Part shown: piece after piece, positions 6,366 through 58,300 of the stretch | How the letters are laid out: each line of letters begins with the position of its first letter | How positions within the stretch are numbered: position 1 is the first letter of the stretch | IMG/VR virus record: IMGVR_UViG_3300032307_000369 | Span: 30,875-94,874 of that record | Strand: one strand, 5' to 3' | Source: a virus | DNA: 64,000 nt | Notes under the pieces: model-generated | Database searches by the model: none | What the model was told of the DNA's origin: nothing | The model's input: only the letters and a program-made list of their open reading frames with translations | Made by a program: the position numbers and the translations under genes

Positions 6366-6911
6366 ATGAGTTTACGGGAAATTACTAAAGATCTACATCA
6401 CGAAGCAGAAACAACAAAGTTTGCTAAGATGCTACTAAGTGGTAAAATTGGCAAGGAAGATTACAGAAACTATCTGTATAACTTACTAGCAATTTACGAT
6501 CCAATTGAGTGGTACTGTAAACGTCAGGGCTTTCTTACTAACATGCCAGACCTGCCAAGACTCAAGTCTATCTATGCAGATTTTACAGAATTAGATGAGT
6601 GCGGATATTACTACCTAACTCCTGCTACATTAGAATATCAAACATACTTACATAAACTAGGCAATGATCCAGAACGTAAACATCTTGTTAAGGCGCATTT
6701 ATATTGCCGCCATATGGGCGACCTATTCGGTGGCCAAATCATTAAGAAGCAAGTAGCACATATTTCAAGTGGTAAGTTTTACGACTTTGAAAATGCTGAT
6801 GCTATGAAGATGGCTATTCGTGAAACACTTACAGATGACTTGGGTGACGAAGCTCGGGTGGCATTTGAATTTGCTATTAAAATGATGCGTGATCTCTATG
6901 CCGGAGAGTAA
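6366..6911 (+). CDS. heme oxygenase (short HO family)
   Basis: LREITKDLHHEAE…, LYCRHMGDLFGGQIIKK matches the HO proximal and distal helix motifs (RYLGDLSGGQ). The start is coupled to the clpS stop. Confidence 0.7.
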   Translation: MSLREITKDLHHEAETTKFAKMLLSGKIGKEDYRNYLYNLLAIYDPIEWYCKRQGFLTNMPDLPRLKSIYADFTELDECGYYYLTPATLEYQTYLHKLGNDPERKHLVKAHLYCRHMGDLFGGQIIKKQVAHISSGKFYDFENADAMKMAIRETLTDDLGDEARVAFEFAIKMMRDLYAGE

Positions 6912-7584
6912 AGTATGGGACACCCTAATTGAAATCCAAGCTCTACTTGAGACGTCCTTTGAAAAAACAGGAGTCGAAGTCTTCGAGCCTGGCATGGATC
7001 GTTTTAATCAACCTGGTTGGGTTAATCGTGTATGGACTAGCGATAAGTATCGTAGGGCCCACGTTGATGTCGTCGATGCTAGGCTAACCAAAGGTCTTTG
7101 GATGATGCACTGTTGCATCTTCCCGCATACACATAATCCAGCTCCAATTTACGGCTTTGATGTTATTGCTGGTAAGAATAAAATTACTGGCTGTTTCCAC
7201 GACTATTCAAAAGCAGGTGATCCTAATCATCCCATGATGCAGTGGTTTCATGATGAAGTCAGTAAGTTAGAATGGCGCAGAGAGCGAACTTTACCTGAAT
7301 GGGCCACTAACATTTTTAGTGGTAGCATGGTTGCCGCAGGCAATGTACAAGATGAACAAGAACTAGAGCAAATTACTAATCTTGCTAAAACCACTATAGA
7401 ACACTATCTAAGCACAGTTGCTGATACTAACAATACCGTTCCTGATACTACATGGGATCAAAACTACTACGCACAGAATCAAAAATGTAACCCGCATACA
7501 CCCAGAGTTATGGTTAGTTTAGGGCTTTCAGAAGATGATGTCAAGCATTTTATACAGGAATGTCTGTTTCCAGAGATTCGATAA
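6889..7584 (+). CDS. ferredoxin-dependent bilin reductase family (PebS/PcyA/PcyX-like)
   Basis: About 230 aa directly downstream of heme oxygenase and overlapping its end. The size, acidic/aromatic composition and synteny (HO then FDBR) match phage bilin reductases. The start is GTG at 6889 or ATG at 6898. Confidence 0.5.
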   Translation: MISMPESKVWDTLIEIQALLETSFEKTGVEVFEPGMDRFNQPGWVNRVWTSDKYRRAHVDVVDARLTKGLWMMHCCIFPHTHNPAPIYGFDVIAGKNKITGCFHDYSKAGDPNHPMMQWFHDEVSKLEWRRERTLPEWATNIFSGSMVAAGNVQDEQELEQITNLAKTTIEHYLSTVADTNNTVPDTTWDQNYYAQNQKCNPHTPRVMVSLGLSEDDVKHFIQECLFPEIR

Positions 7585-7594
7585 ATAATACATT

Positions 7595-9406
7595 ATGCGT
7601 TTAGATGAATTTCAATTAGCGGGACAAGTCCCTTCAACTGTACAAAGAGCTGTTCCAGCAACGGCTCAACCCACTGCACAACCAGCAATGTCCACAACGG
7701 GCACTGGAGCAACTGAACAAGATGCAAAAAATGCTCTTATATCTCTTGTAGATAATAGTAAAGATTTGCCACCAGATTCGCCAGTTCATGAATTTGTAAA
7801 CAAGTTCTTAAATACAATCTTAACTCACATACAAGATATACCAGTTCAAGAAGCATCAAAAATGCTTCAGAATATACAAGATGCTAACTCTGAACTTCTT
7901 CAAACAATACTGTTAAATCTACAACAACTGACCCCAGAAGAATTAGCTATCGTAACTTCAGAAACCTCAGACATTAATGCAAAAGTTGAAGCAGTTAAGA
8001 AAATTGCAGATAGACTGTTAAAAACAAAGCCAGTACAAAAGGCGTTCAATAAACAAGTGGCCACTATTGAATTAGACGTTAAAGGTAATATTGGTAAACT
8101 TGACAGCGCAATTGAAAAACGAGCACAAAAATTTGCTAGAGATTTTGGACTACCATTGAAGTGGGCTAGAAACTTGATTGGTATGTTTGATGTAAACATT
8201 ACTAGAGAACAACGTGATGAATTTTTAGCCGCATGTGAAGCAGGAACTGCTCTAGATGTTGGTCAAATGATACAAGATGGTGAAGGCAAAGTTGAAGATT
8301 ACGTACTACTAACACAGCCTAAAATTAAAGAAGTATTTGACAGTGTAAAAGATACTCTATTAGACATTTCATTAAGTACAGGTCAACGTGGTGCCACAGG
8401 ACCTTTTGAGGCCATGATGGCTATCATGGGAGGTTGTAAAAAGCCTGCACCAAATGAGGGCGGAGACCTTAAAACTAAAGATGGCTTAAAACTTGAAGTT
8501 AAAGCCACTTCTATTAGTCCAAGTACAGAATCTCCAACTTCTGGAGGTAATACTAATGCATGGTTAGATTCTACTGCTGGAAAAGAAATTTCTGGATCTG
8601 CATTGAGAAAAGTGGCCAACGAATGGCTAAGAGATGTTGCTCCTGAAGCGTTAACTGATAAAAAATTCCAAACTGTTTGGAAAAAGGCTGATTTTAGATC
8701 AGGTGGGTTATCAAGTCTAAAAGAAGCACTAATAATGTTGAGAGATTTAGCTTACAAACCAGCTCCTGGCAAAAAGCTAATAACTGCCATGATGGCTGAA
8801 ATGTATCCGAACATCACAAATCTTCAAAGTGAAGGTTACGATTTTGATGCCGCTTGTATGAGAATACTGAGTGCTATTGGAAAAAGCACAGGGGACATCA
8901 AAGCAGACAAACCATTTAAAGATGCAATTGCTAAAGAGCAAGGAGTCATGGGCTTGTTAGAGTATATTAAAGGAAAAGGTAATGACGGATTTGTTTTCTT
9001 TAATAGTTCAACACAAAAATTTAAAATTGTAATTGGTGTTAAAGGTGTAATTGCAGAGTTAGGTGCTAAAGATTCTAACTTGCACTTTGATGCTCCAATG
9101 ACCATGGGCGGTTCTGCTAAGGCTAGTGCAGGCGTATATTATGGTGCAAAACCAGGAAGTCCAGAAGGCCAAGAATACTTGCAAAAATTCAACTCAAGTC
9201 CAGAAAGAGTTGAACTATATAGACAAGTACAACTGGCAAAACAAGCGGCAGCTCAAAACAAATCATTAGCCATGATTGAAGCCGCAAAAGAAGGCTTAAC
9301 AGAATTTGAGTTTGAAGGTAAAAAATATTCTGTATCTAAAGCCGCTTTAAAGAAATATTTTGAGCCTGACATCCCAATGTCTAGAACCAAAAAGAAAACC
9401 CGTTAA
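7595..9406 (+). CDS. hypothetical protein (603 aa)
   Basis: Long uninterrupted ORF with a Pro/Thr/Ala-rich N-terminus and no recognisable motif. Confidence 0.55.
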   Translation: MRLDEFQLAGQVPSTVQRAVPATAQPTAQPAMSTTGTGATEQDAKNALISLVDNSKDLPPDSPVHEFVNKFLNTILTHIQDIPVQEASKMLQNIQDANSELLQTILLNLQQLTPEELAIVTSETSDINAKVEAVKKIADRLLKTKPVQKAFNKQVATIELDVKGNIGKLDSAIEKRAQKFARDFGLPLKWARNLIGMFDVNITREQRDEFLAACEAGTALDVGQMIQDGEGKVEDYVLLTQPKIKEVFDSVKDTLLDISLSTGQRGATGPFEAMMAIMGGCKKPAPNEGGDLKTKDGLKLEVKATSISPSTESPTSGGNTNAWLDSTAGKEISGSALRKVANEWLRDVAPEALTDKKFQTVWKKADFRSGGLSSLKEALIMLRDLAYKPAPGKKLITAMMAEMYPNITNLQSEGYDFDAACMRILSAIGKSTGDIKADKPFKDAIAKEQGVMGLLEYIKGKGNDGFVFFNSSTQKFKIVIGVKGVIAELGAKDSNLHFDAPMTMGGSAKASAGVYYGAKPGSPEGQEYLQKFNSSPERVELYRQVQLAKQAAAQNKSLAMIEAAKEGLTEFEFEGKKYSVSKAALKKYFEPDIPMSRTKKKTR

Positions 9407-9480
9407 ACACTAATTCACTAAGCATTTAATTTGTTGCCAGTTCTCCGTTAAATAATAATGACGGAATTCGGAGAGCGAGC

Positions 9481-19906: not shown

Positions 19907-19981
19907 CTGGCGATAGTTCAACGGATAGAACAGTAGCCTTCTAAGCTATTAATCCAGGTTCGATTCCTGGTCGCCGGACCA
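19907..19981 (+). tRNA. tRNA-Arg (anticodon UCU)
   Basis: Cloverleaf folded by hand. Acceptor CTGGCGA/TCGCCGG, D arm GTTC/GAAC, anticodon stem GTAGC/GCTAT with loop CTTCTAA, T arm CCAGG-TTCGATT-CCTGG, discriminator A and an encoded CCA. Confidence 0.8.
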
Positions 19982-19998: not shown

Positions 19999-20832
19999 AT
20001 GAAAATTAACCTAGTCAGTGACATGCACATCAACTTTCAAGATATTAACTTGCCAGGTGGTGATGTGCTCATTATGGCTGGTGATATCATGGAAGCTGGG
20101 CATCTACGTCTTGCTGACAATGCTAAAAAGAATACTTTTATTGCAGACCGGTACCGTAGATTCATCAATGAAGAATTAATCAAATACCGTCATGTGATCT
20201 ACGTTGCGGGTAATCACGAACATTATAGTAACAGCTATGACGATACTCACGATAGACTAAAACGTGAATTGCCTGACAACGTGCATTTTTTAGAAGCAGA
20301 ATCAATCAAGATTGATGATGTATGGTTCTTTGGTGGCACGTTTTGGACTGACATGAACAAGGGTGATCCTATTACTGCCAGTGTGTTAAAACAAAACATG
20401 GCTGACTTCAGTGGGTCTATCAAATTTGGTAATAGTATTCGTGTTGATACCATGTACGGTGATAGTTTTTACACCAGTAAATTCACTCCAGCGTATGCCA
20501 AGGGCGTGTTTCACGAAACAATGGAAAAATTGAAAACTTTTTTAGAAGCTCACCCTGATGAAAAAGTTGTTGTAGTAAGTCATCATGCACCAACAGAGTT
20601 GAGTGTTAATGAATACTACAAAAATGAATTCCATATGAATGGTGGATACCATAGTCGATTGGGTGATTTTATTTTAGATCATCCTAATATCAAAGTATGG
20701 TGCCATGGTCACATGCACGATCCGGTTGATTACACTATAGGCACAACTCGTGTGCTGAGTAACCCACGTGGTTATAAAGGATATGAGCAACAAGCTGAAG
20801 TGTTTGATCCTAATTTTAGTTTTGACGTATAA
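19999..20832 (+). CDS. calcineurin-like metallophosphoesterase
   Basis: MPP motifs: DMH (block I), GDIME (block II), GNHE (block III), HHAP and GHMH. Confidence 0.7.
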   Translation: MKINLVSDMHINFQDINLPGGDVLIMAGDIMEAGHLRLADNAKKNTFIADRYRRFINEELIKYRHVIYVAGNHEHYSNSYDDTHDRLKRELPDNVHFLEAESIKIDDVWFFGGTFWTDMNKGDPITASVLKQNMADFSGSIKFGNSIRVDTMYGDSFYTSKFTPAYAKGVFHETMEKLKTFLEAHPDEKVVVVSHHAPTELSVNEYYKNEFHMNGGYHSRLGDFILDHPNIKVWCHGHMHDPVDYTIGTTRVLSNPRGYKGYEQQAEVFDPNFSFDV

Positions 20833-20843
20833 GGACAACAGAC

Positions 20844-21473
20844 ATGGGATTTGTTTGTGATGGAGATTTATCTAAGATATTTGGACGCATTGACAAAAAA
20901 CTGTCTGTTGTGCATGATAAAGACAAGTCGTTAGTTAAACTACTTGATCTTGACATTGAACAAGGACCGTGGCTTGCTGGCGGAGCCGTACTCACATGGC
21001 TCAGTGGACATCCTGTTGGAGACAGTGACTTTGATATCTTTTTCAAAGACTTGCGACAGTTTGATGAAATGTTTGGCAGGCTCATGCGCAATCATGCTAG
21101 TATTATCTATACCAGTGAAAACGCATTAACTCTACATCTTACCATTGATGATGAACTCAAACGCATACAATTAATTCGAAAGAGTTATTTTGATTCTGCA
21201 AAAGATGTAATTGATCATTTTGATTTTACAATTTGTCAATTGGTCACTGATGGATACCAAGTAATTGGTGCTGATCATACCTTTGAACATTTAAAAGAAA
21301 AAAGAATTGTCAGTGTAGGTCCAGCAAAGCGGTCTGTGGTAAAACGAATTGTCAAATACGTTAGTTATGGGTATACCGTTGATCAAAATTTGATGCAGTC
21401 TATTCTTGACAACCCAGATGATTATGACTGGTCGTTTAATAACATAGATGAAAATTATGAAAACGCATTCTAA
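20844..21473 (+). CDS. putative Pol-beta-superfamily nucleotidyltransferase
   Basis: LAGGAVLTWLSGHPVGDSDFDIFF fits the hG[GS]-x(9-13)-D-x-[DE] NTase signature. The rest is unknown. Confidence 0.4.
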   Translation: MGFVCDGDLSKIFGRIDKKLSVVHDKDKSLVKLLDLDIEQGPWLAGGAVLTWLSGHPVGDSDFDIFFKDLRQFDEMFGRLMRNHASIIYTSENALTLHLTIDDELKRIQLIRKSYFDSAKDVIDHFDFTICQLVTDGYQVIGADHTFEHLKEKRIVSVGPAKRSVVKRIVKYVSYGYTVDQNLMQSILDNPDDYDWSFNNIDENYENAF

Positions 21474-22779: not shown

Positions 22780-22880
22780 GGGAGTGTTGCTAATATTGGC
22801 CTAAGGGCAGAGCTTATACCTCTGTAAGCACCGTCTAGATAAGGCGGCGAATGTGGGTTCGATTCCCGCCACTCCTACCA
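22780..22880 (+). tRNA. atypical tRNA-like element (about 101 nt including CCA, anticodon unresolved)
   Basis: Canonical 3' half: T arm GTGGG-TTCGATT-CCCGC, acceptor 3' strand CACTCCT, discriminator A, CCA. The only complementary 5' strand is GGGAGTG, giving G1:U72 and about 25 extra nt in the 5' half. GGGAGTG also pairs with an upstream AACACTC as a hairpin. Confidence 0.35.
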
Positions 22881-22886
22881 AACATT

Positions 22887-22971
22887 GCCTGCATGGTGAA
22901 ATAGGTAAACACAGCAGACTTAAAATCTGCCGGAGAAATCCTTCCCAGTTCGATTCTGGGTGCAGGCACCA
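22887..22971 (+). tRNA. tRNA-Leu (anticodon UAA), class II
   Basis: Acceptor GCCTGCA/TGCAGGC, 3-bp D stem GTG/CAC with GG in the loop, anticodon stem GCAGA/TCTGC with loop CTTAAAA, 13-nt variable arm, T arm CCCAG-TTCGATT-CTGGG, A73 and CCA. Confidence 0.8.
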
Positions 22972-23030: not shown

Positions 23031-23114
23031 GCGACTGTGGTGGAATGGTATACACAGCAGACTTAAAATCTGCCGCCGCAAGGATTGAGGGTTCGAGTCT
23101 CTCCAGTCGTACCA
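23031..23114 (+). tRNA. tRNA-Leu (anticodon UAA), second copy, class II
   Basis: Acceptor GCGACTG/CAGTCGT (G1:U72), D stem GTG/CAC, an anticodon arm identical to the first copy (GCAGA-CTTAAAA-TCTGC), long variable arm, T arm GAGGG-TTCGAGT-CTCTC, A73 and CCA. Confidence 0.75.
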
Positions 23115-24368: not shown

Positions 24369-24484
24369 ATATCAAGTTTGAACAAACTCCCCTAAATAAT
24401 TTGTAACAAAGCATAGACATTAGTGTTTGTCCTTGTTATAATTAAAGCTAACGCACTTAAACAAAGACACACTTAAGGATTTAC

Positions 24485-25573
24485 ATGTCTTATTTTCTCA
24501 AATCTGGTAATACATTCCGCGTCAGTTCTAAAGAAGCCATGGACTTGCATGACAAGTTGCCAGCAGGTAACTATGTGGTTAAAGAGATGCCCATGGATGG
24601 CCCACTTTACCTAGAGCATATTGACTCTTTTGAAGTCAAAGGCAAACGTTACGGTGACTTGGACAAGAATACTGATCGTATTCTTAATACCTTTATGAGC
24701 CGTACAGCATCTACAGGTGTTATGCTTGCAGGTGAAAAAGGTTCTGGCAAGTCATTGCTGGCTAAGAATTTGGCCATTGTTGCGGCTCGTGACATGAACA
24801 TTCCATGCATTGTTATCAATGCTCCTTGGGTTGGTGATAAGTTTAACAGTTTCATTCAAAGCATTGAACAACCATGCATGGTCTTGTTTGATGAGTTTGA
24901 AAAAGTTTACGATAGCGATGACCAAGAAAAGGCATTGACCTTGCTGGATGGTGTATTCCCTAGCAAGAAGCTGTTTGTCCTAACTTGTAACGACAAGTGG
25001 CGTATTGACCAGCACATGCGTAACCGTCCAGGTCGCCTGTACTACATGTTGGACTACAAAGGTCTTGATGCGGCATTTATTACTGAGTACTGCATGGATA
25101 ACTTGAAGCCAGCACTGCAAAAGCACACTGAAAAGTTGTGCCAAATTGCCAGCTTGTTTAGCCAGTTTAACTTTGACATGTTGAAAGCAACAGTTGAAGA
25201 AATGAACCGTTACGATGAAGAACCACAAGATGCTCTGCGTATGCTGAACGTCAAGCCAGAGTTTGATTCAGGCAACAAGTTCACAGTCAAGCTACAACTT
25301 AACGGTGATGAGCTGAAAGACACTGATTTGGAAAGCCAAGAGTGGAGTGGTAACCCATTGCAAAGCCAAGTTCGAATCCACTACAAGAATTTTGCTGAAC
25401 AGCAAGATGACGAAGGAGATTTGGACTGGGATTGGGAACGTTTGCATTTTGAAGCTATTGACTTGAAGAAGATTGATAGCCAAACTGGTAAGTTCGTATT
25501 TGTTAAGGATGGCGCTGTGCTTACCCTTAACAAGGTTAAAGAAAAATCTTATAACTACTACGATGCTTTTTGA
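24485..25573 (+). CDS. P-loop ATPase (AAA-like)
   Basis: Walker A GEKGSGKS and Walker B VLFDEFE. The acidic C-terminal half is unknown. Confidence 0.6.
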   Translation: MSYFLKSGNTFRVSSKEAMDLHDKLPAGNYVVKEMPMDGPLYLEHIDSFEVKGKRYGDLDKNTDRILNTFMSRTASTGVMLAGEKGSGKSLLAKNLAIVAARDMNIPCIVINAPWVGDKFNSFIQSIEQPCMVLFDEFEKVYDSDDQEKALTLLDGVFPSKKLFVLTCNDKWRIDQHMRNRPGRLYYMLDYKGLDAAFITEYCMDNLKPALQKHTEKLCQIASLFSQFNFDMLKATVEEMNRYDEEPQDALRMLNVKPEFDSGNKFTVKLQLNGDELKDTDLESQEWSGNPLQSQVRIHYKNFAEQQDDEGDLDWDWERLHFEAIDLKKIDSQTGKFVFVKDGAVLTLNKVKEKSYNYYDAF

Positions 25574-25603
25574 TAAACTGTTGTAAACATACAACATTTA
25601 AGG

Positions 25604-25643
25604 AACAGGACTAGTTGACAAAACCAGCTAGTCCTGTTATAAT
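25604..25643 (+). terminator. terminator-promoter composite hairpin
   Basis: AACAGGACTAG-ttgacaaaacca-CTAGTCCTGTT is a perfect 11-bp stem followed by ATAATTT. The loop contains TTGACA and the 3' arm runs into TATAAT with a 17-bp spacer. Confidence 0.55.
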
Positions 25644-25649
25644 TTACGC

Positions 25650-26198
25650 ATGACAAATACATATATTACATCAGATTTGCACTTTGGTCACAGAAACATT
25701 ATGAATTTCTGTCCAGTTAGTCGCGCACGATATAACGGTGACGTAGACTACATGAATGAACAAATGATAGTTGAATGGAACGCTATTGTTCAACCAGAAG
25801 ACACTGTTTACATTTTGGGTGACGTTGCGTTCTTGCCCACAGCCAAAGCTGTGAGTATCATGCGCCGTTTGAACGGTACAAAGATTTTGATTGAAGGTAA
25901 TCATGACCGTAAGGCATTGCATGATCCTGTATTCCGCAGTTGTTTTTCTGAAGTACACAAGTATCTTTGGATTGATTACAAGGGCACACAGGTAATCATG
26001 TTTCATTATCCTATTGCAGAATGGGATCAAATGCACAGGGGCAGTGTACACTTTCATGGACACTTGCATGGCAATGTCAGCGGAATGGAAAAATATCGCT
26101 GCCGTGACATGGGCATGGATGCAACTGGTAACATTGTGACCAAAATGGAAGATGCTATCAAGGACGCTCTTACGGGCGAAATCAAAAGTCATCATTAA
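25650..26198 (+). CDS. metallophosphoesterase, candidate RNA 3'-phosphatase
   Basis: DLHFGH, GDVAF, GNHD, FHYP and GHLHGN MPP motifs. The ATG lies 7 nt after TATAAT, so the transcript is near-leaderless. Confidence 0.7.
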   Translation: MTNTYITSDLHFGHRNIMNFCPVSRARYNGDVDYMNEQMIVEWNAIVQPEDTVYILGDVAFLPTAKAVSIMRRLNGTKILIEGNHDRKALHDPVFRSCFSEVHKYLWIDYKGTQVIMFHYPIAEWDQMHRGSVHFHGHLHGNVSGMEKYRCRDMGMDATGNIVTKMEDAIKDALTGEIKSHH

Positions 26199-26207
26199 GG
26201 AATCAGT

Positions 26208-26672
26208 ATGGCTAAGTGTTATCAACTTGTTGGAGTTCCAGGCAGTGGAAAAAGCACATGGATCAAAAATCAAGATTGGGCAGTGGACTGTGTGGTAGTT
26301 TCCACAGACGAATTTGTTGAAGATTATGCTCGCGAGTGTGGTTCAACTTATAATGAAGTGTTTGACGACTACATGCCCACTGCTGTTAATCTAATGGCTG
26401 ACCAAGTTGTTCGTGCTCGTGAAGCAGGCAAAGATATTATTTGGGATCAAACTAGTACTACTCAAAAAAGTCGTGCTCGTAAATTCCGTATGTTGCCTGA
26501 GTACGATCATATTGCTGTAGTTTTTACTACACCTGAACAAGACGAGTTGGCTAAAAGATTGGCTAGCCGTCCAGGAAAAAATATTCCTGCTCACGTTATG
26601 CGTAGTATGATTAACCATTTTGAAATGCCTGATGAAGAAGAAGGATTTAAAGAAATTTGGAGAGTATCATGA
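26208..26672 (+). CDS. pnk: polynucleotide 5'-kinase (T4 Pnk kinase-domain-like)
   Basis: VGVPGSGKSTW is identical to the T4 Pnk P-loop context (GCPGSGKSTW). HVMRSMINHFE matches T4 Pnk VLRSMYKSM. There is no HAD phosphatase domain. Confidence 0.7.
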   Translation: MAKCYQLVGVPGSGKSTWIKNQDWAVDCVVVSTDEFVEDYARECGSTYNEVFDDYMPTAVNLMADQVVRAREAGKDIIWDQTSTTQKSRARKFRMLPEYDHIAVVFTTPEQDELAKRLASRPGKNIPAHVMRSMINHFEMPDEEEGFKEIWRVS

Positions 26673-27115
26673 AACAAGAGTTGGACGAACAACTATGTAC
26701 CAAGTACCCTAAGATATTTGTAAACCGTCATGAAGACATGACTACTACTGCTATGTGTTGGGGCTTTGGTTGTGGCGATGGATGGTATCAAATACTTGAC
26801 AGTCTTTGCAGTCAAATTCAACACCACATTGATTGGAACAACAGTAACTTTGATAAAGGTTATACTCAATACAAACAAGTTCCGCAAGTGGTTGTTGATC
26901 AAGTCAAAGAAAAATTTGGTGGGTTACGTTTTTATTACCAAGGTGGTGATGACTACATTCACGGACTAGTTAGCATGGCAGAATCTTGGGCAGTTAACAC
27001 TTGTGAAGAGTGTGGATCGTCTGGAAAGATTCGACATGGCGGATGGATCAAAACTCTTTGTGATAAGCACGAAGAAGAGCGGCAACAACGATATAAAGAA
27101 CGATTCGATGTTTAA
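26669..27115 (+). CDS. Cys-rich hypothetical protein
   Basis: ATG with GGAGAG 8 nt upstream. Multiple Cys pairs (CWGFGCGDGW, CEECGSSGK, LCDKH). Lies between the kinase and the ligase. Confidence 0.45.
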   Translation: MKQELDEQLCTKYPKIFVNRHEDMTTTAMCWGFGCGDGWYQILDSLCSQIQHHIDWNNSNFDKGYTQYKQVPQVVVDQVKEKFGGLRFYYQGGDDYIHGLVSMAESWAVNTCEECGSSGKIRHGGWIKTLCDKHEEERQQRYKERFDV

Positions 27116-27989
27116 AGAAGACTTAAAGAAGTATGTAGAAACTTCTAACCTAGTTAACATGAAAGAGTGTGGTGACGGTATCTACGTGCTAAAGTACAAG
27201 AAGAAAGTGTTCTACGATAACTTGTGGAACGAATACATTGCTGAATGTCGTGGCTCTATTGTGGACAAGGATTTCAACTTGGTTGCTTATCCATTCACAA
27301 AGATCTACAACTATGGTATTGAAAAGGAAGCACCAGTGCTTGCTCCAGATACTAAGGTAACTGCTTTCCGCAAGGTTAACGGTTTTATGGTTGCTTGTAC
27401 ATTGCATAACGGCAAACTGTTAGTGAGTACTACTGGTAGCACAGACAGCGACTATGTAAACATGGCACGTGAACTGATTGACGAAGCAAAGTACTTAGAC
27501 TTGTGCTCACGTTGGGCAGGTTATACATTTATGTTTGAGTGCGTTCATCGTAACGACCCACACATTGTTCCTGAAAAGGAAGGTATGTATGTCCTAGGCT
27601 ATCGTGAAAATAAATGGCACACTCCTGTAGAACATGATCCGTTCATGTTAATGGAAATGAGTCGTGTGTTAGATTGTTTTGTGCCAGAAAGCATAATGAC
27701 CAATATGGCACGTTTACAACAGTTGGCTAAGGAATGTAAGCATGAAGGTTATGTATTCTATACTGACGATGGTGTAAGTGCCAAAATCAAGAGCCCTTAC
27801 TATTTGACTTCAAAGTGGGTTGCCCGAAATCCGCGCACAGACAAATTGGTGAACTTGCAAAATGACATCAAGCACAATCTTGACGAAGAATACTATCCAC
27901 TCGTGGATGCTATCCGTGCTAACATTGTTGAATACACTGCTATGGACGAGCAAGCTCGACTAGCCTGGGTAAGGGAACAATTGGCATGA
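27108..27989 (+). CDS. ATP-dependent RNA ligase (Rnl1-like nucleotidyltransferase)
   Basis: Motif I FRKVNGFMVA (KxNG), motif IV EGYVFYTDDG and motif V AKIKSPYY. The start is set at the ATG overlapping the upstream stop (ATGTTTAA). Confidence 0.65.
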   Translation: MFKEDLKKYVETSNLVNMKECGDGIYVLKYKKKVFYDNLWNEYIAECRGSIVDKDFNLVAYPFTKIYNYGIEKEAPVLAPDTKVTAFRKVNGFMVACTLHNGKLLVSTTGSTDSDYVNMARELIDEAKYLDLCSRWAGYTFMFECVHRNDPHIVPEKEGMYVLGYRENKWHTPVEHDPFMLMEMSRVLDCFVPESIMTNMARLQQLAKECKHEGYVFYTDDGVSAKIKSPYYLTSKWVARNPRTDKLVNLQNDIKHNLDEEYYPLVDAIRANIVEYTAMDEQARLAWVREQLA

Positions 27990-28140
27990 GTAACTTGTGG
28001 TTTAATATTAGATTTGGAACGAGGCATTTTCAATTTTCTAGAGATTGGGAAATAACATTTCGTGTTAATCCTTATTGGATTGAAAATCCTCCTTCCAAAT
28101 GGTTTGAAATTTATTGCTTATTTGGAATGGAGTTTGGACT

Positions 28141-28320
28141 ATGAAAGATGAAAGTAATTTGCCCGTTGCGGAACAGAGCCTGGTGTTCCGTTTACGCAAG
28201 CGAGCAGAAATACGTAGGCAAATCAAAGATCGCAAAAGTGTTCAAGAAGGCGCTCCAGATCGAATTGCAGATCTGTTAGAAGAAGCGGCCAACGAAATCG
28301 AACGTCTCCAAAACCAATAA
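28141..28320 (+). CDS. hypothetical small protein
   Basis: GGAG lies 9 nt upstream of ATG 28141. The longer ORF starting at 28114 lacks an SD. Confidence 0.4.
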   Translation: MKDESNLPVAEQSLVFRLRKRAEIRRQIKDRKSVQEGAPDRIADLLEEAANEIERLQNQ

Positions 28321-28347
28321 AATACTGCATTTTGGTAAAATCAGATA

Positions 28348-28376
28348 TTGACTTTATCTGGTTTTACCTGTATAAT
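28348..28376 (+). promoter_or_regulatory. sigma70-like promoter, TTGACT-N17-TATAAT, inside an inverted repeat
   Basis: Consensus boxes. GTAAAATCAGAT and ATCTGGTTTTAC flank the -35 as a near-perfect inverted repeat. Confidence 0.5.
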
Positions 28377-28406: not shown

Positions 28407-30575
28407 ATGTTACTTAATCTTGCGCCAAACAACGAAGCTATTTTGAGCAATGTTGGACAAATTGGTGAATTCCGTATTCGCAACAGTGCTAAGGCATTTA
28501 GTATTTTGAGCTCTGGCTTGTATGCTAATAAGATCCGTGCTATCGTTCGTGAACTTTCATGTAACGCAGTGGACAGCCATGTGGCGGCAGGACGTAGCGA
28601 TACTCCGTTTGATGTGCATCTTCCAAACGCTTTGGAACCTTGGTTTGCTATTCGCGACTACGGAACAGGACTGAGCCATGAACAAGTTACTAATATCTAT
28701 ACTACCTATTTTGAATCTACTAAGACCAATAGCAACGACTTTATTGGTGCGTTGGGTCTTGGTTCTAAGTCTCCTTTTTCTTACACTGATAACTTTACAG
28801 TAACCGCAATCAAAGACGGTCGTAAAGGTATCTACACTGCATTTATCAACGAAACTGGTGTGCCTAGTATTGCTAAGATGGGCGAAGAAGAAACTGACGA
28901 GCCAGCAGGTGTTGAGGTTAAGTTCTCAGTCAATGACCGTTGGGACTTTGACAAATTCCGTAGCGAAGCACGTACTGTATATCAGTATTTTAAATTGCAA
29001 CCTGTGATCAGTGGCAATGCTGATTTTACTATTCCAGTGATTGAATATGACCGTAAGGATATTATTCCTGGTGTACACAGCTATAAAGACACACGACAAA
29101 GTAAAGCAATCATGGGTAACATTGCTTACCCAATTGACATTCCACAAGCAGAACGCAATGATAAAGATATCTTTGCCATGCTTAACTGTGGTTTGGAATT
29201 GCATTTTACTATTGGCGAATTGGATTTCCAGGCGTCACGTGAAGGCTTGAGCTACATTCCACAAACTGTCAACGCTATCAAGGCCAAACTGGAAGCTGTT
29301 AATTTGGCATTGGCTGAAGTATTGTCTGGTGAAGCAAGTGCTATTACTAATGATTGGGAAAAGACTTTCTTCCTTTTGAAGAAGAAAGAAAACAATCTTT
29401 GGACTGAAGCTGTTAAAAAGTATGTTGCAGATACGAACTTTGATTTGATTGATGCAGGTACTAGCAGTTACTACATCCGTGCTAAAAATTGGACTATGCC
29501 AGTTAAAGAATTGGCGGAACTCTATAACATTGACATTATGGCATTTGACAAACAGTCTGGTAAAAAGGCTGTGAGCAACTTGAAAGCTGAAAATGTTCAT
29601 GTGGCTAATGCTCCAGTTTATCAAGCATGGACTATTATTTTGCGTGAAGGTGTTACCTTTATTAAAAATGATACCAAAGTTGGTGCAAGTGCTCGTGCTA
29701 AGTTTCATTGGAACAATGCTACATTTGATAAGACTACCCCGCATTATCAAACTGTGTATGTTTTGAACAAGGCAAACAAGGACAAGCCTGCTAAGTTTGA
29801 TGAGTTCCTTAAGGCAGTTCGCAATCCGCCTAGCGTGATGTTTGCCAGTGAATTGATGGAAAAGGAACGTGCTCAAAGTAGTGCAGGTGGCCGTAACGTC
29901 ACTATCATGCGTTTGGAAGAACGTGGTCGTGGTGGATACTATAGCCAGAAAGAAATGGTATGGCGTGACGCTGGCAAGGCTGATAGTTTTGATTCCACTA
30001 AAACTTACTACTACTTGCCACTTAGTGGATTCAATGTACAAAGTTCGTTTAGCACATATTCTTTTGACGTCAAAGAATTTCAAAAGGATCTTAGCCAATG
30101 TGGTATCAGTGGACTAACTGAAACTGATATTTACGGTGTTCGTAAAAGTGATATCGAATGGATTAAGACTCAAAAAAATTGGGTTAACATTGAACAACAT
30201 CTTAGCAATGTTTTGGCAAAAGTTGATAAAAAACTTTTGATGAGTTTGGTGTTAAATGCTATTGACAGTTTCCATCTTATCAGTTACAATGAAAGCATAG
30301 TGACCGATGTGGTAACTAAAAATAGTCCATACTTGAAATTGGTAACACAATTTAAAGATTATGAAAAGATCCGTTACAGTGAAGTCAGTTTGAAGCGTTT
30401 GTGTGATCGTTACGCCAAAGGTGTAGCTTTTAACCCAACTGCTTTTGTGCAGAAGTTTGTTGATGAATGCTCTGTTATCAGCAAACGTTACCCGTTGTTG
30501 CAATACCTACGTAGTGCTCCTAACAAAGAAATCGCAGAGTATGTTAATTTAATCGACGCACAGAAAGGTGTTTAA
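28407..30575 (+). CDS. rIIA: rIIA-like protein (GHKL/HATPase_c N-terminal domain)
   Basis: 722 aa. N-box ELSCNAVDSH, G1 box DYGTGLS and G2 box GALGLGSKS of GHKL ATPases. Size and architecture match T4 rIIA, and an rIIB-sized gene follows. Confidence 0.55.
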   Translation: MLLNLAPNNEAILSNVGQIGEFRIRNSAKAFSILSSGLYANKIRAIVRELSCNAVDSHVAAGRSDTPFDVHLPNALEPWFAIRDYGTGLSHEQVTNIYTTYFESTKTNSNDFIGALGLGSKSPFSYTDNFTVTAIKDGRKGIYTAFINETGVPSIAKMGEEETDEPAGVEVKFSVNDRWDFDKFRSEARTVYQYFKLQPVISGNADFTIPVIEYDRKDIIPGVHSYKDTRQSKAIMGNIAYPIDIPQAERNDKDIFAMLNCGLELHFTIGELDFQASREGLSYIPQTVNAIKAKLEAVNLALAEVLSGEASAITNDWEKTFFLLKKKENNLWTEAVKKYVADTNFDLIDAGTSSYYIRAKNWTMPVKELAELYNIDIMAFDKQSGKKAVSNLKAENVHVANAPVYQAWTIILREGVTFIKNDTKVGASARAKFHWNNATFDKTTPHYQTVYVLNKANKDKPAKFDEFLKAVRNPPSVMFASELMEKERAQSSAGGRNVTIMRLEERGRGGYYSQKEMVWRDAGKADSFDSTKTYYYLPLSGFNVQSSFSTYSFDVKEFQKDLSQCGISGLTETDIYGVRKSDIEWIKTQKNWVNIEQHLSNVLAKVDKKLLMSLVLNAIDSFHLISYNESIVTDVVTKNSPYLKLVTQFKDYEKIRYSEVSLKRLCDRYAKGVAFNPTAFVQKFVDECSVISKRYPLLQYLRSAPNKEIAEYVNLIDAQKGV

Positions 30576-30576
30576 A

Positions 30577-31377
30577 ATGAGCTATCCGTATTTGATTCAA
30601 GGCAATAATGTTGTTGTGGTAATTGACAACAAGCCGCACACTATCAGCAAGACACATATCACTTACCAAAAGGTAGTTGATGCAATTAAAGCTAATGACT
30701 GGGAAACAGTTAAAGACACAATTGAACCTAAAAAGGTTGTACTAGAGTACGGCAAAGGTAACGTTGAAGTCCAAGGAGAACAGTTGTTTTGGAAAGGCAA
30801 AGCGTTTCATAATGCTTTGGCAACTCGTATGATCCAAATGTTGCAAGATGGTTTCCCAGTGGAACCTCTAGTCAACTTTATGGAAAATTTGATGAAGAAC
30901 CCTAGTTACCGTTCAGTAAATGAACTGTATGGTTTCTTGGAAAAGAACAACTTGCCAATTACCAGCGATGGTCACTTCCTTGCTTATAAGAAAGTTCGTA
31001 AGGATTATAAAGACTGTCATACTGGTACAATGGATAACAGTATTGGTCAAGTGGTTGAAATGGAACGTCATAGTGTTGACGACAATGCCAACAATACTTG
31101 CAGTTCTGGTTTGCACTTCTGTTCCAAAGAGTACTTGAATAGTTTTGGTGGCGACCGCACTGTGATTGTTAAAATCAATCCTGCAGATGTTGTTAGTATT
31201 CCCACTGACTATGACTTTAGCAAGGGTCGTGCTTGCCGATACGAAGTTATTGGTGAGTTGGGTGTACATCCAGACGATGCTTTCAAAGCACCTGTTCAAG
31301 ATGAAGCCTACACACAAGAGCAACTGGATGCCGCAGTTAAGGCCGCAGTTGAAGCCGCTCTTAAGGTAACACAATGA
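30577..31377 (+). CDS. rIIB: rIIB-like protein
   Basis: About 267 aa, coupled to the upstream gene (TAAAATG). Assigned by synteny and size only. Confidence 0.35.
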   Translation: MSYPYLIQGNNVVVVIDNKPHTISKTHITYQKVVDAIKANDWETVKDTIEPKKVVLEYGKGNVEVQGEQLFWKGKAFHNALATRMIQMLQDGFPVEPLVNFMENLMKNPSYRSVNELYGFLEKNNLPITSDGHFLAYKKVRKDYKDCHTGTMDNSIGQVVEMERHSVDDNANNTCSSGLHFCSKEYLNSFGGDRTVIVKINPADVVSIPTDYDFSKGRACRYEVIGELGVHPDDAFKAPVQDEAYTQEQLDAAVKAAVEAALKVTQ

Positions 31378-37348: not shown

Positions 37349-37764
37349 AAATTGGATTTACATGTAGCACGTTTGATTTGTTTCATGCAGGGCATGTAAT
37401 TATGCTTGAAGAAGCAAAGAAGCAATGTGACTTTTTAATAGTAGGTTTACAAACTGACCCAACCATTGATAGACCCAATACTAAAAACAAACCGGTACAA
37501 GGTGTGTTTGAACGTTGGACCCAATTAAAGGCTTGCAAGTTTGTAGATCAAATTGTTCCATACAGTAGTGAAAAGGAATTGCTAGACCTATTGCAATCTT
37601 TTCCTATTGATGTTAGAATAATAGGTGAGGAATACAAAGACAAATCTTTTACTGGTGATCATTTAGATATGGATTACCATTTTAATGAAAGACGACATAG
37701 TTTTAGTACAACAGAATTGCGCCAACGTGTGGTTGATGCAGAAAATAAAAAGGAAATAAAATGA
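37345..37764 (+). CDS. cytidylyltransferase (TagD / RfaE-domain-II-like nucleotidyltransferase)
   Basis: [15 protein letters not shown] is the HxGH motif of the CTP:glycerol-3-phosphate cytidylyltransferase family. Confidence 0.65.
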
Positions 37765-38381
37765 GTTTAGTCCCAATGGTAGTTGAAAAAAGTAATCAAG
37801 GTGAACGAGCCTATGACATTTATAGTCGATTACTCAAAGACCGTGTTATATTTTTGAACGGCGAAGTAGAAGATTACATGGCAAATGTAATTATTGCACA
37901 ACTACTATTCTTAGAAAGTGAGAATAGTGATTTGGATATTCACTTGTACATCAATAGTCCAGGCGGTAGCGTGAGTGCCGGTCTTGCAATTTATGACACT
38001 ATGCAGTTCATCAAACCAGATGTATGTACGTATGTCATGGGTCAAGCCTGTAGTATGGGCAGTTTCCTAGCACAAGCGGGTGCTCCTGGCAAACGAGTAG
38101 TACTTCCAGAATCACGCACAATGATTCACCGTGTGAGCTCAGGTACACGCGGTACAAGTGGTAGTATTCACGTACAAGACTTGCAATTTGAAGATGCTAA
38201 ACGTAGTTTTGAAGAAGCACAACGTATCAACAAACGTCTAACAGAATTGTATGTACGTCATAATACAGTGGGCAAAACATACGAAGAGCTATTTGAAACT
38301 ATGAAGTTTGATACTTTCTTGAGTGCCGCTGAAGCTGTTGCCAATGGTCTTGCTGATCAAGTGATTGCAAAACGTCCTTGA
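37761..38381 (+). CDS. clpP: ATP-dependent Clp protease proteolytic subunit ClpP
   Basis: Collinear with bacterial ClpP. Ser ([10 protein letters not shown]), His (MIHRVSSG) and Asp triad present, plus INSPGGSV. Confidence 0.9.
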
Positions 38382-39926: not shown

Positions 39927-40466
39927 ATGGCAAAATATCTTTCAACAAAAACATACGGCAATGATCGTGGACTTTCATGCTGTTTCAGACAGTGGCGTAG
40001 CACACATAGTCACTGCTCATTACTACACGGATATTCAATTGGTATTAAATTAATTTTTGAATCCGAGACACTAGATGATCGTAACTGGGTTATGGATTTT
40101 GGTGGACTAAAAGCATTCAAAGAGTGGAGCGAATACATGTTTGATCATACTTTGGTGCTTGGTGTTGATGATCCACATTTAGAAAAATTTAAAACACTTG
40201 CGGCACTTGGTCTTAATGATGTGGGCGGAGTTTGCGACATTCGTATCGTAGAAGCTGTAGGCTGTGAAAAATTTGCTGAATTGGCTTACAAAACTATGCA
40301 AGACATTTTGGAAACTTTCCAAAAGGGCGAAGGTTGGGAACTAAAAGACCAGTCTGGCAAAACATTAAAGTTGTTCGGTGCTCGTTATCCAGTTGGCGCA
40401 GGTGTTAAATTGCGTTCAGTAGAAGTTTTTGAACACGCCGGTAACAGTGCTGTTTATGAAGGATAA
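39927..40466 (+). CDS. 6-pyruvoyl-tetrahydropterin synthase / QueD family protein
   Basis: HSHCSLLHGYS resembles the QueD C-x3-HGH zinc motif with Tyr in place of the last His. WVMDFGGLK resembles QueD WIIDFAELK. Confidence 0.55.
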   Translation: MAKYLSTKTYGNDRGLSCCFRQWRSTHSHCSLLHGYSIGIKLIFESETLDDRNWVMDFGGLKAFKEWSEYMFDHTLVLGVDDPHLEKFKTLAALGLNDVGGVCDIRIVEAVGCEKFAELAYKTMQDILETFQKGEGWELKDQSGKTLKLFGARYPVGAGVKLRSVEVFEHAGNSAVYEG

Positions 40467-42551: not shown

Positions 42552-42598
42552 AATGAATGTGGGCCACGAACTACAATAACAATAAGGTTCAATTAGTT

Positions 42599-43324
42599 AT
42601 GTTAAAAATTACAAATCTCTCCGTCAATTACGACGTTATTCCAATTTTGGAAGATATCAATTTAGAAATCAACGAAGGCGAAATTCACGCTATTCTAGGA
42701 CCAACAGGATCTGGAAAAAGTTCCTTGGCAAGTACAATAGCTGGTAAAACAGACCTCAGTGTTGTTAAAGGAAAAATAAACTTTAAAAGAAAATCTTTGA
42801 ACAGTTTAAATCCAAATGAAAGAAGTAAGTTAGGAATTTTTACAACCTTTCAAGAACCTCCTGAAATTAATGGGATCACAAATTTAAATTTAACCAGACA
42901 AATTTTAAATGCTCGTAATGACAAAAGATCATCAACTGACATTATTAATGATTACAAAAGTTTAATAAAACAATTTGATCTAGGAAGCGAATGGTCCAAT
43001 CGAGATTATAACGTAGGAGCAAGTGCAGGCGAAAAAAAGAAAAATGAAATTGTACAGTTACACATGCTCAATCCATCTCTTACAATTTTAGACGATATTG
43101 ACAGTGGTTTAGACTTAGACACACTAACCGAAGTATTTAAAAGTTTAAAAACTTTCCTATCACAAAAAGGAAAGGCAGCTATCATTATCACACATCAACC
43201 AACGATCCTTGAAGCAATCGAGCCCACCCATGTGCATGTTATCATAGATGGAAGAATCGTAGAGTCAGGTGATAAGAAACTAATTAAAAGGATCATTTCA
43301 AATGGCTATCGAGAGTTTTCTTAA
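42599..43324 (+). CDS. sufC: Fe-S cluster assembly ATPase SufC
   Basis: ATG 42599 with AAGG upstream. Walker A GPTGSGKSS, ABC signature and Walker B (LNPSLTILDDIDSGLD). About 240 aa, typical SufC size. Confidence 0.8.
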   Translation: MLKITNLSVNYDVIPILEDINLEINEGEIHAILGPTGSGKSSLASTIAGKTDLSVVKGKINFKRKSLNSLNPNERSKLGIFTTFQEPPEINGITNLNLTRQILNARNDKRSSTDIINDYKSLIKQFDLGSEWSNRDYNVGASAGEKKKNEIVQLHMLNPSLTILDDIDSGLDLDTLTEVFKSLKTFLSQKGKAAIIITHQPTILEAIEPTHVHVIIDGRIVESGDKKLIKRIISNGYREFS

Positions 43325-44126
43325 AGTTGATTCACAAGACCCAGATTGGTCAAACAGTCCCACTCAGTACTTTGGTAAAAAATTTAAGGTCATTGATGCA
43401 AATTGCTTAATGATAAAAGAAAATACTGATGACTTAATGGTTCTACGTATGAACCCAACTGAGTCAGATTTGCTGTGTAAAAATTTGCAAGTTCTTGGAA
43501 AAGATAGTAGTAGATTAGATTTGTTTATTTTATGTGACGGATCTAAAAATACTCAACAGGTTTTTATTTACAATGTAACTGCTGAGCCAGATTCAATTAT
43601 TAATATTGGAATTTTTGTTAAGGACGGAAAACTTAATAAGCATATTTTTGAATGTGAACTTTATGAGAATTCTGTTATTAACATTTTTGGTCTTGCAGAA
43701 AACGAAGTTGGTGGCAGTAGTGAAATCATAAGCAAAGTTTACCATGCAGGTCCTTGTGCAGAGAGCAACACATTTGTAAACAGTATTGCTGGAAAAAATA
43801 GTCGAACTGTTTTTCAAGGCATTGTCAAAATTGAAGAAGACATGATAGACAGTGTTGCCAGTGTAACTAACACTAGTATTACATGTGATGAAACTGCCCA
43901 AGCATTTAGTACTCCGCAAATGATAATTGATTGTGGACAAGTGAGAGCATATCATAACTGTGAAGTCAACACTGTTGACGAAAATAACATATGGTATTTA
44001 GAAAGCAGGGGAATTGATAGAAGTAGTGCTGAAACTCTATTAAAAACGTTGCATCAAGATAGTGTGTTGGACCTTGTTGAATATCAAGACATTAGAGATG
44101 AACTCAAAGATTTTTTCCAAAGTTAA
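43302..44126 (+). CDS. sufD: SufD/SufB-family Fe-S assembly protein
   Basis: C-terminal beta-helix region …CGQVRAYHNCEVNTVDENNIWYLESRGIDRSSAETLL resembles the SufBD core (Y..SRGI). Shorter than typical SufB. Confidence 0.55.
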   Translation: MAIESFLKVDSQDPDWSNSPTQYFGKKFKVIDANCLMIKENTDDLMVLRMNPTESDLLCKNLQVLGKDSSRLDLFILCDGSKNTQQVFIYNVTAEPDSIINIGIFVKDGKLNKHIFECELYENSVINIFGLAENEVGGSSEIISKVYHAGPCAESNTFVNSIAGKNSRTVFQGIVKIEEDMIDSVASVTNTSITCDETAQAFSTPQMIIDCGQVRAYHNCEVNTVDENNIWYLESRGIDRSSAETLLKTLHQDSVLDLVEYQDIRDELKDFFQS

Positions 44127-46227: not shown

Positions 46228-46308
46228 GCCATTATTTACATTAAGTTTATAAAACTATAAGGTAAATAAAGTGGACAGTTGGTATATCACCCAAATTTGG
46301 AGTTAATA

Positions 46309-54843: not shown

Positions 54844-54880
54844 GATATCCTAAAATAAATAAGATGAACAGGAACGAAAA

Positions 54881-58297: not shown

Positions 58298-58300
58298 AAT

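Follow-up and report, generated by a model that had tools for sequence, protein, structure and literature searches.

A 64,000-nucleotide stretch of viral DNA (the window, positions 30,875 to 94,874 of IMG/VR record IMGVR_UViG_3300032307_000369) carries, at positions 25605-28320, what is probably an early unit encoding a three-enzyme pathway for the repair of RNA breaks. The pathway would be made of separate small proteins: a metallophosphoesterase (MPE2), a P-loop kinase (KIN) and an ATP-dependent RNA ligase of the Rnl1 lineage (LIG). In the scheme that we propose, MPE2 would open the cyclic phosphate and remove it, or a 3' phosphate, to leave a 3'-OH; the kinase, of the Pnk type, would add a 5'-phosphate taken from a nucleoside triphosphate; and the ligase would adenylylate itself on Lys89 (in the motif KVNG), pass the AMP to the 5'-phosphate and seal the break. 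The substrates would be RNA ends, probably those of tRNA, and the pathway may serve to counter host defences that cleave RNA. This split healing-and-sealing reading is supported by the homology of each enzyme and by conserved synteny. The first-pass annotation of this DNA, made from the letters alone, had described the genes as a disassembled version of the T4 Pnk/Rnl1 repair pathway; the homology and synteny of the three enzymes uphold that description, but the split architecture proves to be widespread in known phages and not special to this one.

Every gene of the window lies on the + strand, G+C is ~38%, and the open reading frames (ORFs) first described are all present, with E-values far beyond chance. 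The gene boundaries between 24485 and 28320 are matched by independent calls on the metagenomic contig ENA ERZ28594783, which encodes identical proteins. The KIN protein, again identical, is also found on a contig of 245,550 bp, and relatives of LIG are found on contigs of up to 364 kb, which points to an uncultured jumbo phage as the source of the DNA. When the region was compared by megablast with 50,697 phage records, no match at the DNA level appeared, and blastn against phage records gave short patches only, so that this phage has no close cultured relative. The comparisons below rest on two samples. The clade sample comes from a scan of IMG/VR and comprises 80 loci with ligases 71-91% identical, onto which the window proteins were mapped by tblastn; the cultured-phage sample, also obtained by tblastn, comprises five lineages with ligases 38-45% identical to LIG.

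Homology, motifs and layout of the unit

KIN matches PF13671 (E 3e-20), the family expected for it. When a profile of its family (23 members) was searched against the PDB, the relatives recovered were Capnocytophaga Pnkp1 (E 1e-9), the kinase domain of Clostridium thermocellum Pnkp (CthPnkp, E 5e-8), PSTK (E 1e-7), T4 Pnk (1ly1/1ltq, E 1.7e-6) and mammalian PNKP (E 3e-5), with gluconate kinase at E 0.08; the best solved relatives are thus exclusively polynucleotide or tRNA 5'-kinases. Formal alignment of KIN to the kinase domain of T4 Pnk (a query checked to be 100% identical to record X03007) succeeded as well, with a probability of 96% and an E-value of 3.8e-9 over 135 columns in hhalign. 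The P-loop of KIN, G9-S16 (GVPGSGKS), agrees with GxxGxGKS, and the T4-like context that had been noticed around it is real, with PGSGKSTW and VMRSM in KIN against PGSGKSTW and VLRSM in T4. Six residues are essential to the kinase of T4 Pnk (Lys15, Ser16, Asp35, Arg38, Asp85 and Arg126; PMC2831316), and five of them are kept in KIN as K15, S16, D34, D80 and R121, invariant or nearly so among the 23 members; R117, which aligns to T4 R122, is also conserved. The HAD (DxDxT) 3'-phosphatase domain is missing, as had been claimed, since no HAD match was found in KIN and the 154-aa protein ends with its kinase domain. Among the PHROG profiles, KIN matches phrog_2071 (E 7.6e-19), phrog_505 'polynucleotide kinase' and the N-terminal part of phrog_8238, a profile of 737 positions whose C-terminal part is matched by LIG. 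The last of these is a hint of a kinase-ligase fusion, and the only one for the cassette kinase; a large protein search for domain fusions of KIN gave, among the matches listed, close stand-alone relatives of 154 aa only. By its sequence, KIN is a member of the polynucleotide 5'-kinase clade, consisting of the kinase domain only and not orthologous to T4 Pnkp, and we propose that it may act as a 5'-OH RNA kinase.

LIG starts best at the ATG at 27108 rather than at the GTG at 27003. Its family is PF09511, RNA_lig_T4_1 (E 1.5e-12; 48.3 bits against a cut-off of 28.3), and not PF09414 as had been suggested, while the ligase motifs KVNG, EGYVF and KIK are present as described and invariant in the family. 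A search of the LIG family profile against the PDB returned T4 Rnl1 as its sole match (E 1.4e-10), and the formal alignment, which covers motifs I, III, IV and V, pairs T4 Rnl1 residues with those of LIG as follows: R54 with R48 (in ECRG), K75 with K65, K99 with K89 (KVNG), E159 with E144, E227-G228 with E213-G214 (EGYV), and K240/K242 with K226/K228 (KIK). All of these LIG residues are invariant in 17 sequences. Part of the list of essential T4 Rnl1 residues reportedly goes back to Wang, Ho and Shuman 2003. Another part was taken from PMC6379707, which tells RNA ligase clades apart by the domain joined to the nucleotidyltransferase core and describes the C-domain of T4 Rnl1 (~120 aa) as clade-defining and as conferring tRNA specificity. 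LIG belongs to the Rnl1 lineage and appears to have a short C-terminal module unlike that of T4, and we propose it as the sealing enzyme, predicted to undergo adenylylation and to join RNA strands.

MPE2, encoded ahead of the kinase, is of the calcineurin-like type, in line with what had been read from the letters. It matches phrog_547 (E 2e-50) and the structure of Aquifex aq_1665 (PDB 1xm7; the single sequence gives E 1e-13 and the family profile 1e-22), and its five motifs, DxH, GD, GNH(D/E), H and GHxH, are invariant in 16 sequences from six phage lineages (residues D9/H11, G57-D58, G83-N84-H85, H119 and G137-H138/H140). Assignment to PF00149 fails formally: no Pfam family, PF00149 and PF12850 included, is matched at E<=0.01, and none is precomputed for the protein. 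From its motifs and relatives MPE2 is clearly a binuclear metallophosphoesterase of the aq_1665/phrog_547 type. The activities that we propose for it, 2',3'-cyclic phosphodiesterase and 3'-phosphatase, which together would heal the 3' end, are suggested solely by the linkage of the genes.

The genes from MPE2 through KIN, a Cys-rich ORF, LIG and a 52-aa ORF to a last small gene, o28141, are separated by successive gaps of 9, -4, -8, -4 and -4 nt, and two promoters set in stem-loops bracket the cassette exactly (Table 1). In the first, 10-bp arms, ACAGGACTAG (25605-25614) and CTAGTCCTGT (25628-25637), flank the -35 element TTGACA (25615-25620); the -10 element TATAAT (25638-25643), preceded by TG, follows after a 17-nt spacer and lies 6 nt from the ATG of MPE2. 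This stem-loop marks the cassette off from the gene of the AAA ATPase upstream. In the second, GGTAAAATCAGATA and TATCTGGTTTTACC stand around TTGACT and are followed by TATAAT. Strong stems are found on two of the 13 near-consensus promoters of the window. The best-supported conclusion from this layout is that 25605-28320 would be transcribed as one compact early unit. The two elements are like the PeSL of T4-type phages, early sigma-70-type promoters that lie in intergenic stem-loops of a variable region (PMC2839356, PMC4122927), and like them they stand on either side of a module that changes place from relative to relative. Unlike PeSL, the two cassette stems are unrelated in sequence, so that they have no copy similarity that could drive recombination.

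Two small ORFs end the unit. The 52-aa ORF overlaps both LIG and o28141 at ATGA sequences, has no family match and is absent from the 80 clade relatives; ~150 nt of its DNA are similar to Limnohabitans phage DC31. The protein o28141 has the motif LRKRAEIRRQI...DRIADLLEEAA.EIERL, and a homologue is encoded near the ligase in 67 of the 80 clade loci, in several different orders. A role for it as a general cofactor of the ligase was considered and rejected, its homologues in Caulobacter BL47, Myxococcus Mx1 and Limnohabitans DC31 having no ligase, kinase or phosphoesterase nearby. Since the homologues outside the clade are not beside RNA-repair genes, its link to the cassette is clade-specific at most, and we regard this predicted protein as a clade-specific companion of the cassette.

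Table 1. Coordinates of the cassette, its promoters and its neighbours in the window
Feature	Position	Strand	Basis or remark
tRNA-Arg(UCU)	19907-19981		ARAGORN
Fourth tRNA-like gene	22780-22877	+	Rfam, 38.7 bits; missed by the ARAGORN default run
tRNA-Leu(UAA)	22887-22971	+	ARAGORN
tRNA-Leu(UAA)	23031-23114	+	ARAGORN
Own promoter of the AAA ATPase gene	24414-24442	+	Promoter scan
AAA ATPase, 362 aa	24485-25573	+	PF00004, phrog_2376; neighbour, outside the cassette
Promoter in stem-loop, cassette start	25605-25643	+	Sigma-70 consensus 12/12; RNAfold -20.3 kcal/mol
MPE2, predicted binuclear metallophosphoesterase, 182 aa	25650-26198	+	phrog_547, PDB 1xm7
KIN, predicted P-loop kinase, 154 aa	26208-26672	+	PF13671
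Cys-rich ORF, 148 aa	26669-27115	+	No family match
LIG, predicted Rnl1-lineage ATP-dependent RNA ligase, 293 aa	27108-27989	+	PF09511
52-aa ORF	27986-28144	+	ORF list; coding status uncertain
o28141, conserved 59-aa protein	28141-28320	+	ORF list
Promoter in stem-loop, cassette close, ahead of rIIA	28334-28376	+	Consensus 11/12; RNAfold -17.8 kcal/mol
rIIA	28407-30575	+	3' of the cassette
rIIB	30568-31377	+	3' of the cassette, after rIIA

Conservation of the trio in metagenomic relatives and cultured phages

In the clade sample, MPE2 stands beside the ligase in 79 of the 80 loci, the 80th locus beginning at the ligase; a kinase of the window type is found near the ligase in 56 loci, and an AAA_33 kinase of any type in 64. 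All four core genes (MPE2, KIN, LIG and o28141) are present in 48/80 loci, with a median span of 2,525 bp. Ten orders of these genes were seen, among them MPE2-LIG-o28141-KIN, MPE2-KIN-LIG-o28141, KIN-MPE2-LIG-o28141 and MPE2-o28141-KIN-LIG. In seven loci without a window-type kinase, another AAA_33 kinase, of the phrog_2071 type, lies between MPE2 and LIG. This alternative kinase, which occurs in eight clade loci overall, has the signature 'NVHNVP' and is similar to the phrog_2071 kinases that cultured phages encode; it is an analogous enzyme that has taken the place of the window type. The same island of the relatives sometimes contains a YAcAr SLOG protein, and examples of the extra island genes are found at 8262-8786 of locus L042, at 9104-9616 and 9613-10008 of L010, and at 10879-11286 of L017.

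Members of the ligase family were found in 721 phage records. In the cultured-phage sample, homologues of MPE2 are present in all five lineages (E 1e-24 to 1e-38), either beside the ligase or at most 2.5 kb from it. The full trio of phosphoesterase, AAA_33 kinase and ligase is present in Vequintavirus ECP32, E. coli phage Antha, Otagovirus phiPsa267 and Ralstonia phage RSP15. Antha has contiguous genes for the phosphoesterase, the ligase and a 134-aa AAA_33 'ATPase', with the phosphoesterase directly adjoining the ligase. A 'phosphohydrolase' and a 136-aa '3'-phosphatase, 5'-polynucleotide kinase' lie divergently beside 'RNA ligase 1' in ECP32, where 7 tRNAs are found 4 kb off. The row in phiPsa267 reads HD protein, phosphoesterase, small ORF and ligase, with an unannotated AAA_33 kinase ORF ~0.5 kb downstream. 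In RSP15, an AAA_33 'NEDD4-binding protein' adjoins the ligase and MPE2 follows 0.5 kb downstream, then a homologue of another phosphoesterase of the window; 7 tRNAs lie upstream. Acidovorax phage ACP17 has its ligase with an HD protein and MPE2 ~2 kb downstream. The phosphoesterases and ligases of these modules belong to the same families as those of the window, and a small kinase-only AAA_33 protein lies nearby; the kinases, however, are of phrog_2071 (NRHG...H.VP type), whereas KIN is of the T4-like RxxxR type, and several modules also have an HD protein. The annotations of these modules are computational.

The split trio is, then, not new: it is already common in cultured phages, its genes are annotated in GenBank, and its principle appears in a comparative genomic study of jumbo phages. 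In that study PNK and phosphoesterases accompany ATP-grasp RNA ligases, and the phosphoesterases are mostly of the HAD type, with calcineurin-like or HD proteins in a small number of phages (PMC7824862). The literature searched contained no biochemical work on the trio of phosphoesterase, AAA_33 kinase and ligase. For the window alone, the outcome is a good annotation and not a discovery.

The other phosphoesterase of the window (19999-20832, + strand; PF00149 E 2.6e-10, phrog_1649) comes directly after tRNA-Arg(UCU), and in RSP15 and four relatives its homologues are encoded at a distance of a few kb from the ligase. It is followed by a nucleotidyltransferase-like ORF (20844-21473, + strand) that gave no match in the Pfam search made here but has a precomputed one to PF26128 Gad2, an anti-Gabija family. 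This ORF was considered as RlaP, an RNA-ligase-associated nucleotidyltransferase, and rejected, as it has no match to PF10127.

Compared with the known repair systems, the predicted pathway departs from T4 in that T4 Pnkp performs 3'-healing by a fused HAD (DxDxT) domain, where the window would use a separate metallophosphoesterase, and in that the repair genes of the window lie in one operon, unlike pseT and gp63 of T4, which repair tRNA against PrrC. The combination of kinase, binuclear metallophosphoesterase and ligase is that of the bacterial Pnkp-Hen1 systems (CthPnkp; Capnocytophaga Pnkp1/Rnl/Hen1), and KIN is closest in sequence to the kinase domains of Pnkp1 and CthPnkp. A metallophosphoesterase of the lambda-phosphatase type is known to be able to heal 2',3'-cyclic phosphate ends (PMC2190708, PMC3675462). 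In the Pnkp-Hen1 system, however, the three activities are fused in one polypeptide and an Rnl4-type ligase domain has a Hen1 methyltransferase as its partner, whereas the window has three separate ORFs, its ligase is of the Rnl1 lineage and no Hen1 was seen in it; also, MPE2 is related to the Pnkp phosphatase at the superfamily level only. Fungal and plant Trl1 (ligase-kinase-CPD, where CPD is the cyclic phosphodiesterase) is again a single fused protein, in contrast to the separate enzymes of the window; its CPD, an enzyme of the 2H family, leaves a 2'-phosphate, and its ligase has a C-domain of its own (Rnl6 clade).

Nearby tRNA genes and other possible roles

ARAGORN confirms the tRNA cluster that had been noted near the cassette, with its two tRNA-Leu(UAA) genes; the last tRNA ends 1.37 kb from the ATPase gene and 2.5 kb from the phosphoesterase gene. 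The two tRNA-Leu(UAA) genes are divergent paralogues with identical anticodon arms. The fourth tRNA-like gene has a canonical anticodon arm (CAGAG-CUUAUAC-CUCUG, anticodon UAU), a second hairpin (CCGUC-UAGAUAA-GGCGG) at the position of a long variable arm, discriminator A and an encoded CCA. Its 92-94-nt counterparts in relatives are called tRNA-Ile(tat) by ARAGORN, and the copy in locus L052, the closest syntenic relative of the window, lies at the same place, just ahead of tRNA-Leu(UAA). A class-II-like body on this putative AUA-reading tRNA would be unusual. The gene was checked with the intron mode of ARAGORN and with RNAalifold, and its MAFFT alignment to the 92-nt genes of relatives is poor.

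The proximity of tRNA genes had been taken as a sign of a countermeasure against tRNA cleavage, an argument that is now weakened. Across the clade, tRNA genes and the repair cassette do go together: the cassettes of relatives are found inside tRNA arrays or just downstream of them, and these arrays number 28 genes in L010 and L019, 34 in L039 and 36 plus a tmRNA gene in L078, and the arrays near the cassette reach 28-37 genes. In the window, however, codon supply suffices to explain the tRNAs, as these match codons that the phage uses heavily. UUA makes up 34% of the Leu codons and AGA 37% of the Arg codons of the window genes, and the three tRNAs called by ARAGORN read them; the unconfirmed tRNA-like gene would decode AUA, 19% of the Ile codons.

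Like the codon supply, several further observations weigh against reading the unit as a pathway that repairs RNA in the manner of T4. Arg38 of T4 Pnk is essential and serves to bind the acceptor's 3'-phosphate; its position is held by V37 in KIN, and by Val across the whole family, so that either the recognition of the acceptor or the substrate itself must differ. Lys119 is likewise essential in T4 Rnl1, where it lies in the region of motif Ia ('KSKGS'), and is replaced in LIG by an invariant Thr109 in the segment 'STTGS'. Past motif V, LIG has only ~55 residues, which cannot be aligned to the tRNA-specificity C-domain of T4 Rnl1. As for the phosphoesterase, its family is not dedicated to the ligase: 1664 phage records contain relatives of MPE2 whereas 721 contain the ligase family, and some of these relatives are in unrelated contexts, such as adjoining a primase in a crAss-like phage. 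In the literature searched there is no RNA-end assay for the aq_1665/phrog_547 phosphoesterases or for any enzyme of the cassette. Finally, the relatives offer other candidates for 3'-healing. A phosphatase of the DSP/PTP type (PF22785, PF00782, PF22784) is encoded in 72/80 loci, at most 1.5 kb upstream of MPE2 in 65 of them, and an HD_4 protein is encoded between MPE2 and LIG in 38/80; the DSP or the HD protein, and not MPE2, could be the true 3'-healing enzyme there. The DSP phosphatase, HD_4, the alternative AAA_33 kinase and YAcAr SLOG all gave no tblastn match in the 64-kb window.

Some of these points would also fit a trio that is a real end-processing pathway but does not counter anticodon nucleases. 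Such a pathway might serve general RNA repair, of phage or host mRNA or rRNA damaged by any RNase toxin, the maturation of the phage's own tRNAs, or the processing of 3'-phosphate DNA ends. Consistent with it are the apparent lack of a T4-type tRNA-specificity C-domain in LIG, the acceptor site of KIN, which differs from that of T4 in missing Arg38, and the tRNA genes themselves, those of the window fitting codon supply and the large arrays of the relatives fitting tRNA maturation or supply as well as they fit repair. On the other hand, all characterised enzymes of the Rnl1 lineage (T4 Rnl1, fungal Trl1) join tRNA halves (PMC6379707). Further points against it are that no tRNA with an intron was detected and that Antha, phiPsa267 and ACP17 have the module despite few or no nearby tRNAs. 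We consider a role of this kind unlikely, although it survives better than the other alternatives.

It is more improbable still that the genes are independent passengers of a hyperplastic early region, kept together by descent and local shuffling. The targets would then be nucleotide second messengers or phosphoproteins for MPE2 and a small molecule for the kinase, while the ligase would work alone or have a structural role, like T4 gp63 in tail-fibre attachment. Such passengers would suit the spread of the MPE2 family, which is more than double that of the ligase and extends to other contexts, the many small variable ORFs of the cassette region (107 clusters of gap ORFs) and the PeSL-like promoter stem-loops that bracket the cassette. 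Against this, the genes are adjacent in five lineages whose ligases have diverged to the 38-45% identity given above, their linkage is kept through the ten orders of the core genes, a lost kinase is replaced at the same place by another AAA_33 kinase, and phrog_8238 hints at a fused kinase-ligase family. The single KIN sequence scores closely against Pnkp (1.3e-7) and gluconokinase (2.9e-7) in NCBIfam, whereas the KIN family profile puts polynucleotide kinases far above small-molecule kinases.

We thus return to the three-enzyme healing-and-sealing pathway as the preferred reading. If it is correct, the 'heal and seal' answer of T4 to RNA-cutting defences would be built in many phages from separate, swappable enzymes, with a metallophosphoesterase substituting for the HAD phosphatase of T4 and with either of two kinase types serving. 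An uncharacterised phosphoesterase family (aq_1665, 1xm7) would also gain a function. The module is found in at least hundreds of sequenced phages, E. coli vequintaviruses included. A bolder version, which we advance tentatively and with more doubt than confidence, holds that the aq_1665/phrog_547 metallophosphoesterase is the dedicated 3'-healer of a short-C-domain branch of Rnl1 ligases, working with interchangeable kinases, one of them lacking Arg38, and with the Cys-rich protein as a modulator. Within it, the assignment of the enzymes is plausible and modulation of the pathway by the Cys-rich protein is unlikely. Were it true, the metallophosphoesterase would be a third kind of phage end-healer, the other two being the HAD domain in T4 Pnkp and the HD domain in RM378 Pnk.

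Accessory candidates and other genes of the window

The first-pass annotation had also suggested that the Cys-rich ORF and the upstream P-loop ATPase are accessory components of the cassette, which the relatives do not bear out, each of the two being found near the ligase in only 3/80 loci. The Cys-rich ORF starts best at the ATG at 26669 and not at the TTG at 26657. It is translationally coupled between KIN and LIG, its start overlapping the stop of KIN (ATGA, 4 nt) and its end overlapping the start of LIG by 8 nt. The protein gave no match in Pfam, PHROG or NCBIfam and has 7474 unnamed homologues. Its AlphaFold2 model has a mean pLDDT of 89 and no fold match in the PDB, its structural relatives being uncharacterised viral proteins only; invariant cysteines 112, 115 and 131 suggest that it probably binds zinc. 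The C-terminal half, which is conserved, also occurs in Lak megaphages and at the C-terminus of a DLP_6 'N-acetyltransferase'. In the three clade loci that have the gene near the ligase (L017, L018 and L037) it is 4-5 kb away, beside other genes, and in none of the 80 relatives does it lie between cassette genes. The homologues in the huge phages LR756508, LR756500 and LR756511, in the Lak phages and in DLP_6 are not near cassette genes either. In L052 the layout is AAA-MPE2-KIN-LIG-o28141-rIIA-rIIB, the kinase and ligase genes overlapping directly with no Cys-rich gene, from which it follows that the gene is an insertion in the window phage. We judge it to be a passenger insertion and not a core part of the cassette.

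The AAA ATPase (PF00004 E 6e-9; phrog_2376 E 1e-88) is near the ligase in L052, L075 and L082, and in the last two it lies on the other side of the cassette. On this synteny, and on its own promoter outside the stem-loop, it was rejected as a component of the cassette. That a five-component system exists, with the ATPase and the Cys-rich protein as its new accessory subunits, as the coupling of the Cys-rich ORF, its confidently predicted fold and probable zinc site, and the place of the ATPase directly upstream might suggest, is highly improbable in view of their rarity near the ligase, the L052 layout, the Cys-rich homologues elsewhere, and the separate promoter and changing side of the ATPase. 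At the DNA level, the ATPase gene is conserved to a degree that is unusual between phages of very different hosts: positions 24785-25260 share 67% nucleotide identity over 476 bp with an AAA-ATPase gene of Microbacterium phage Pumpernickel, and 76% identity over 88 bp is shared with a Microcystis phage.

Further from the cassette, and likewise on the + strand, a run of curli-type secretion genes (9458-13421) consists of a CsgF-like gene (9458-9991), a CsgG-like gene (9995-11233) and the genes of a curlin-repeat protein (11331-12305) and a FecR-domain protein (12315-13421). It is followed at 16495-18540 by the gene of a 681-aa protein with a CHASE2 sensor and guanylate/adenylate cyclase domains (precomputed Pfam matches of an identical metagenomic gene; phrog_35576). 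Auxiliary genes typical of huge or aquatic phages are found at 3616-5505, 6366-7584, 37761-38381, 39927-40466 and 42557-44126. The set comprises a DnaK/Hsp70 homologue, ~65-68% identical to bacterial DnaK genes, a heme oxygenase with a ferredoxin-dependent bilin reductase, ClpP, a 6-pyruvoyl-tetrahydropterin synthase (QueD-like) and a SufC/SufD-like pair. Three consecutive giant ORFs of 2854, 1138 and 1413 aa occupy positions 46279-62542, with patchy matches to families of tail-fibre and virion proteins only.

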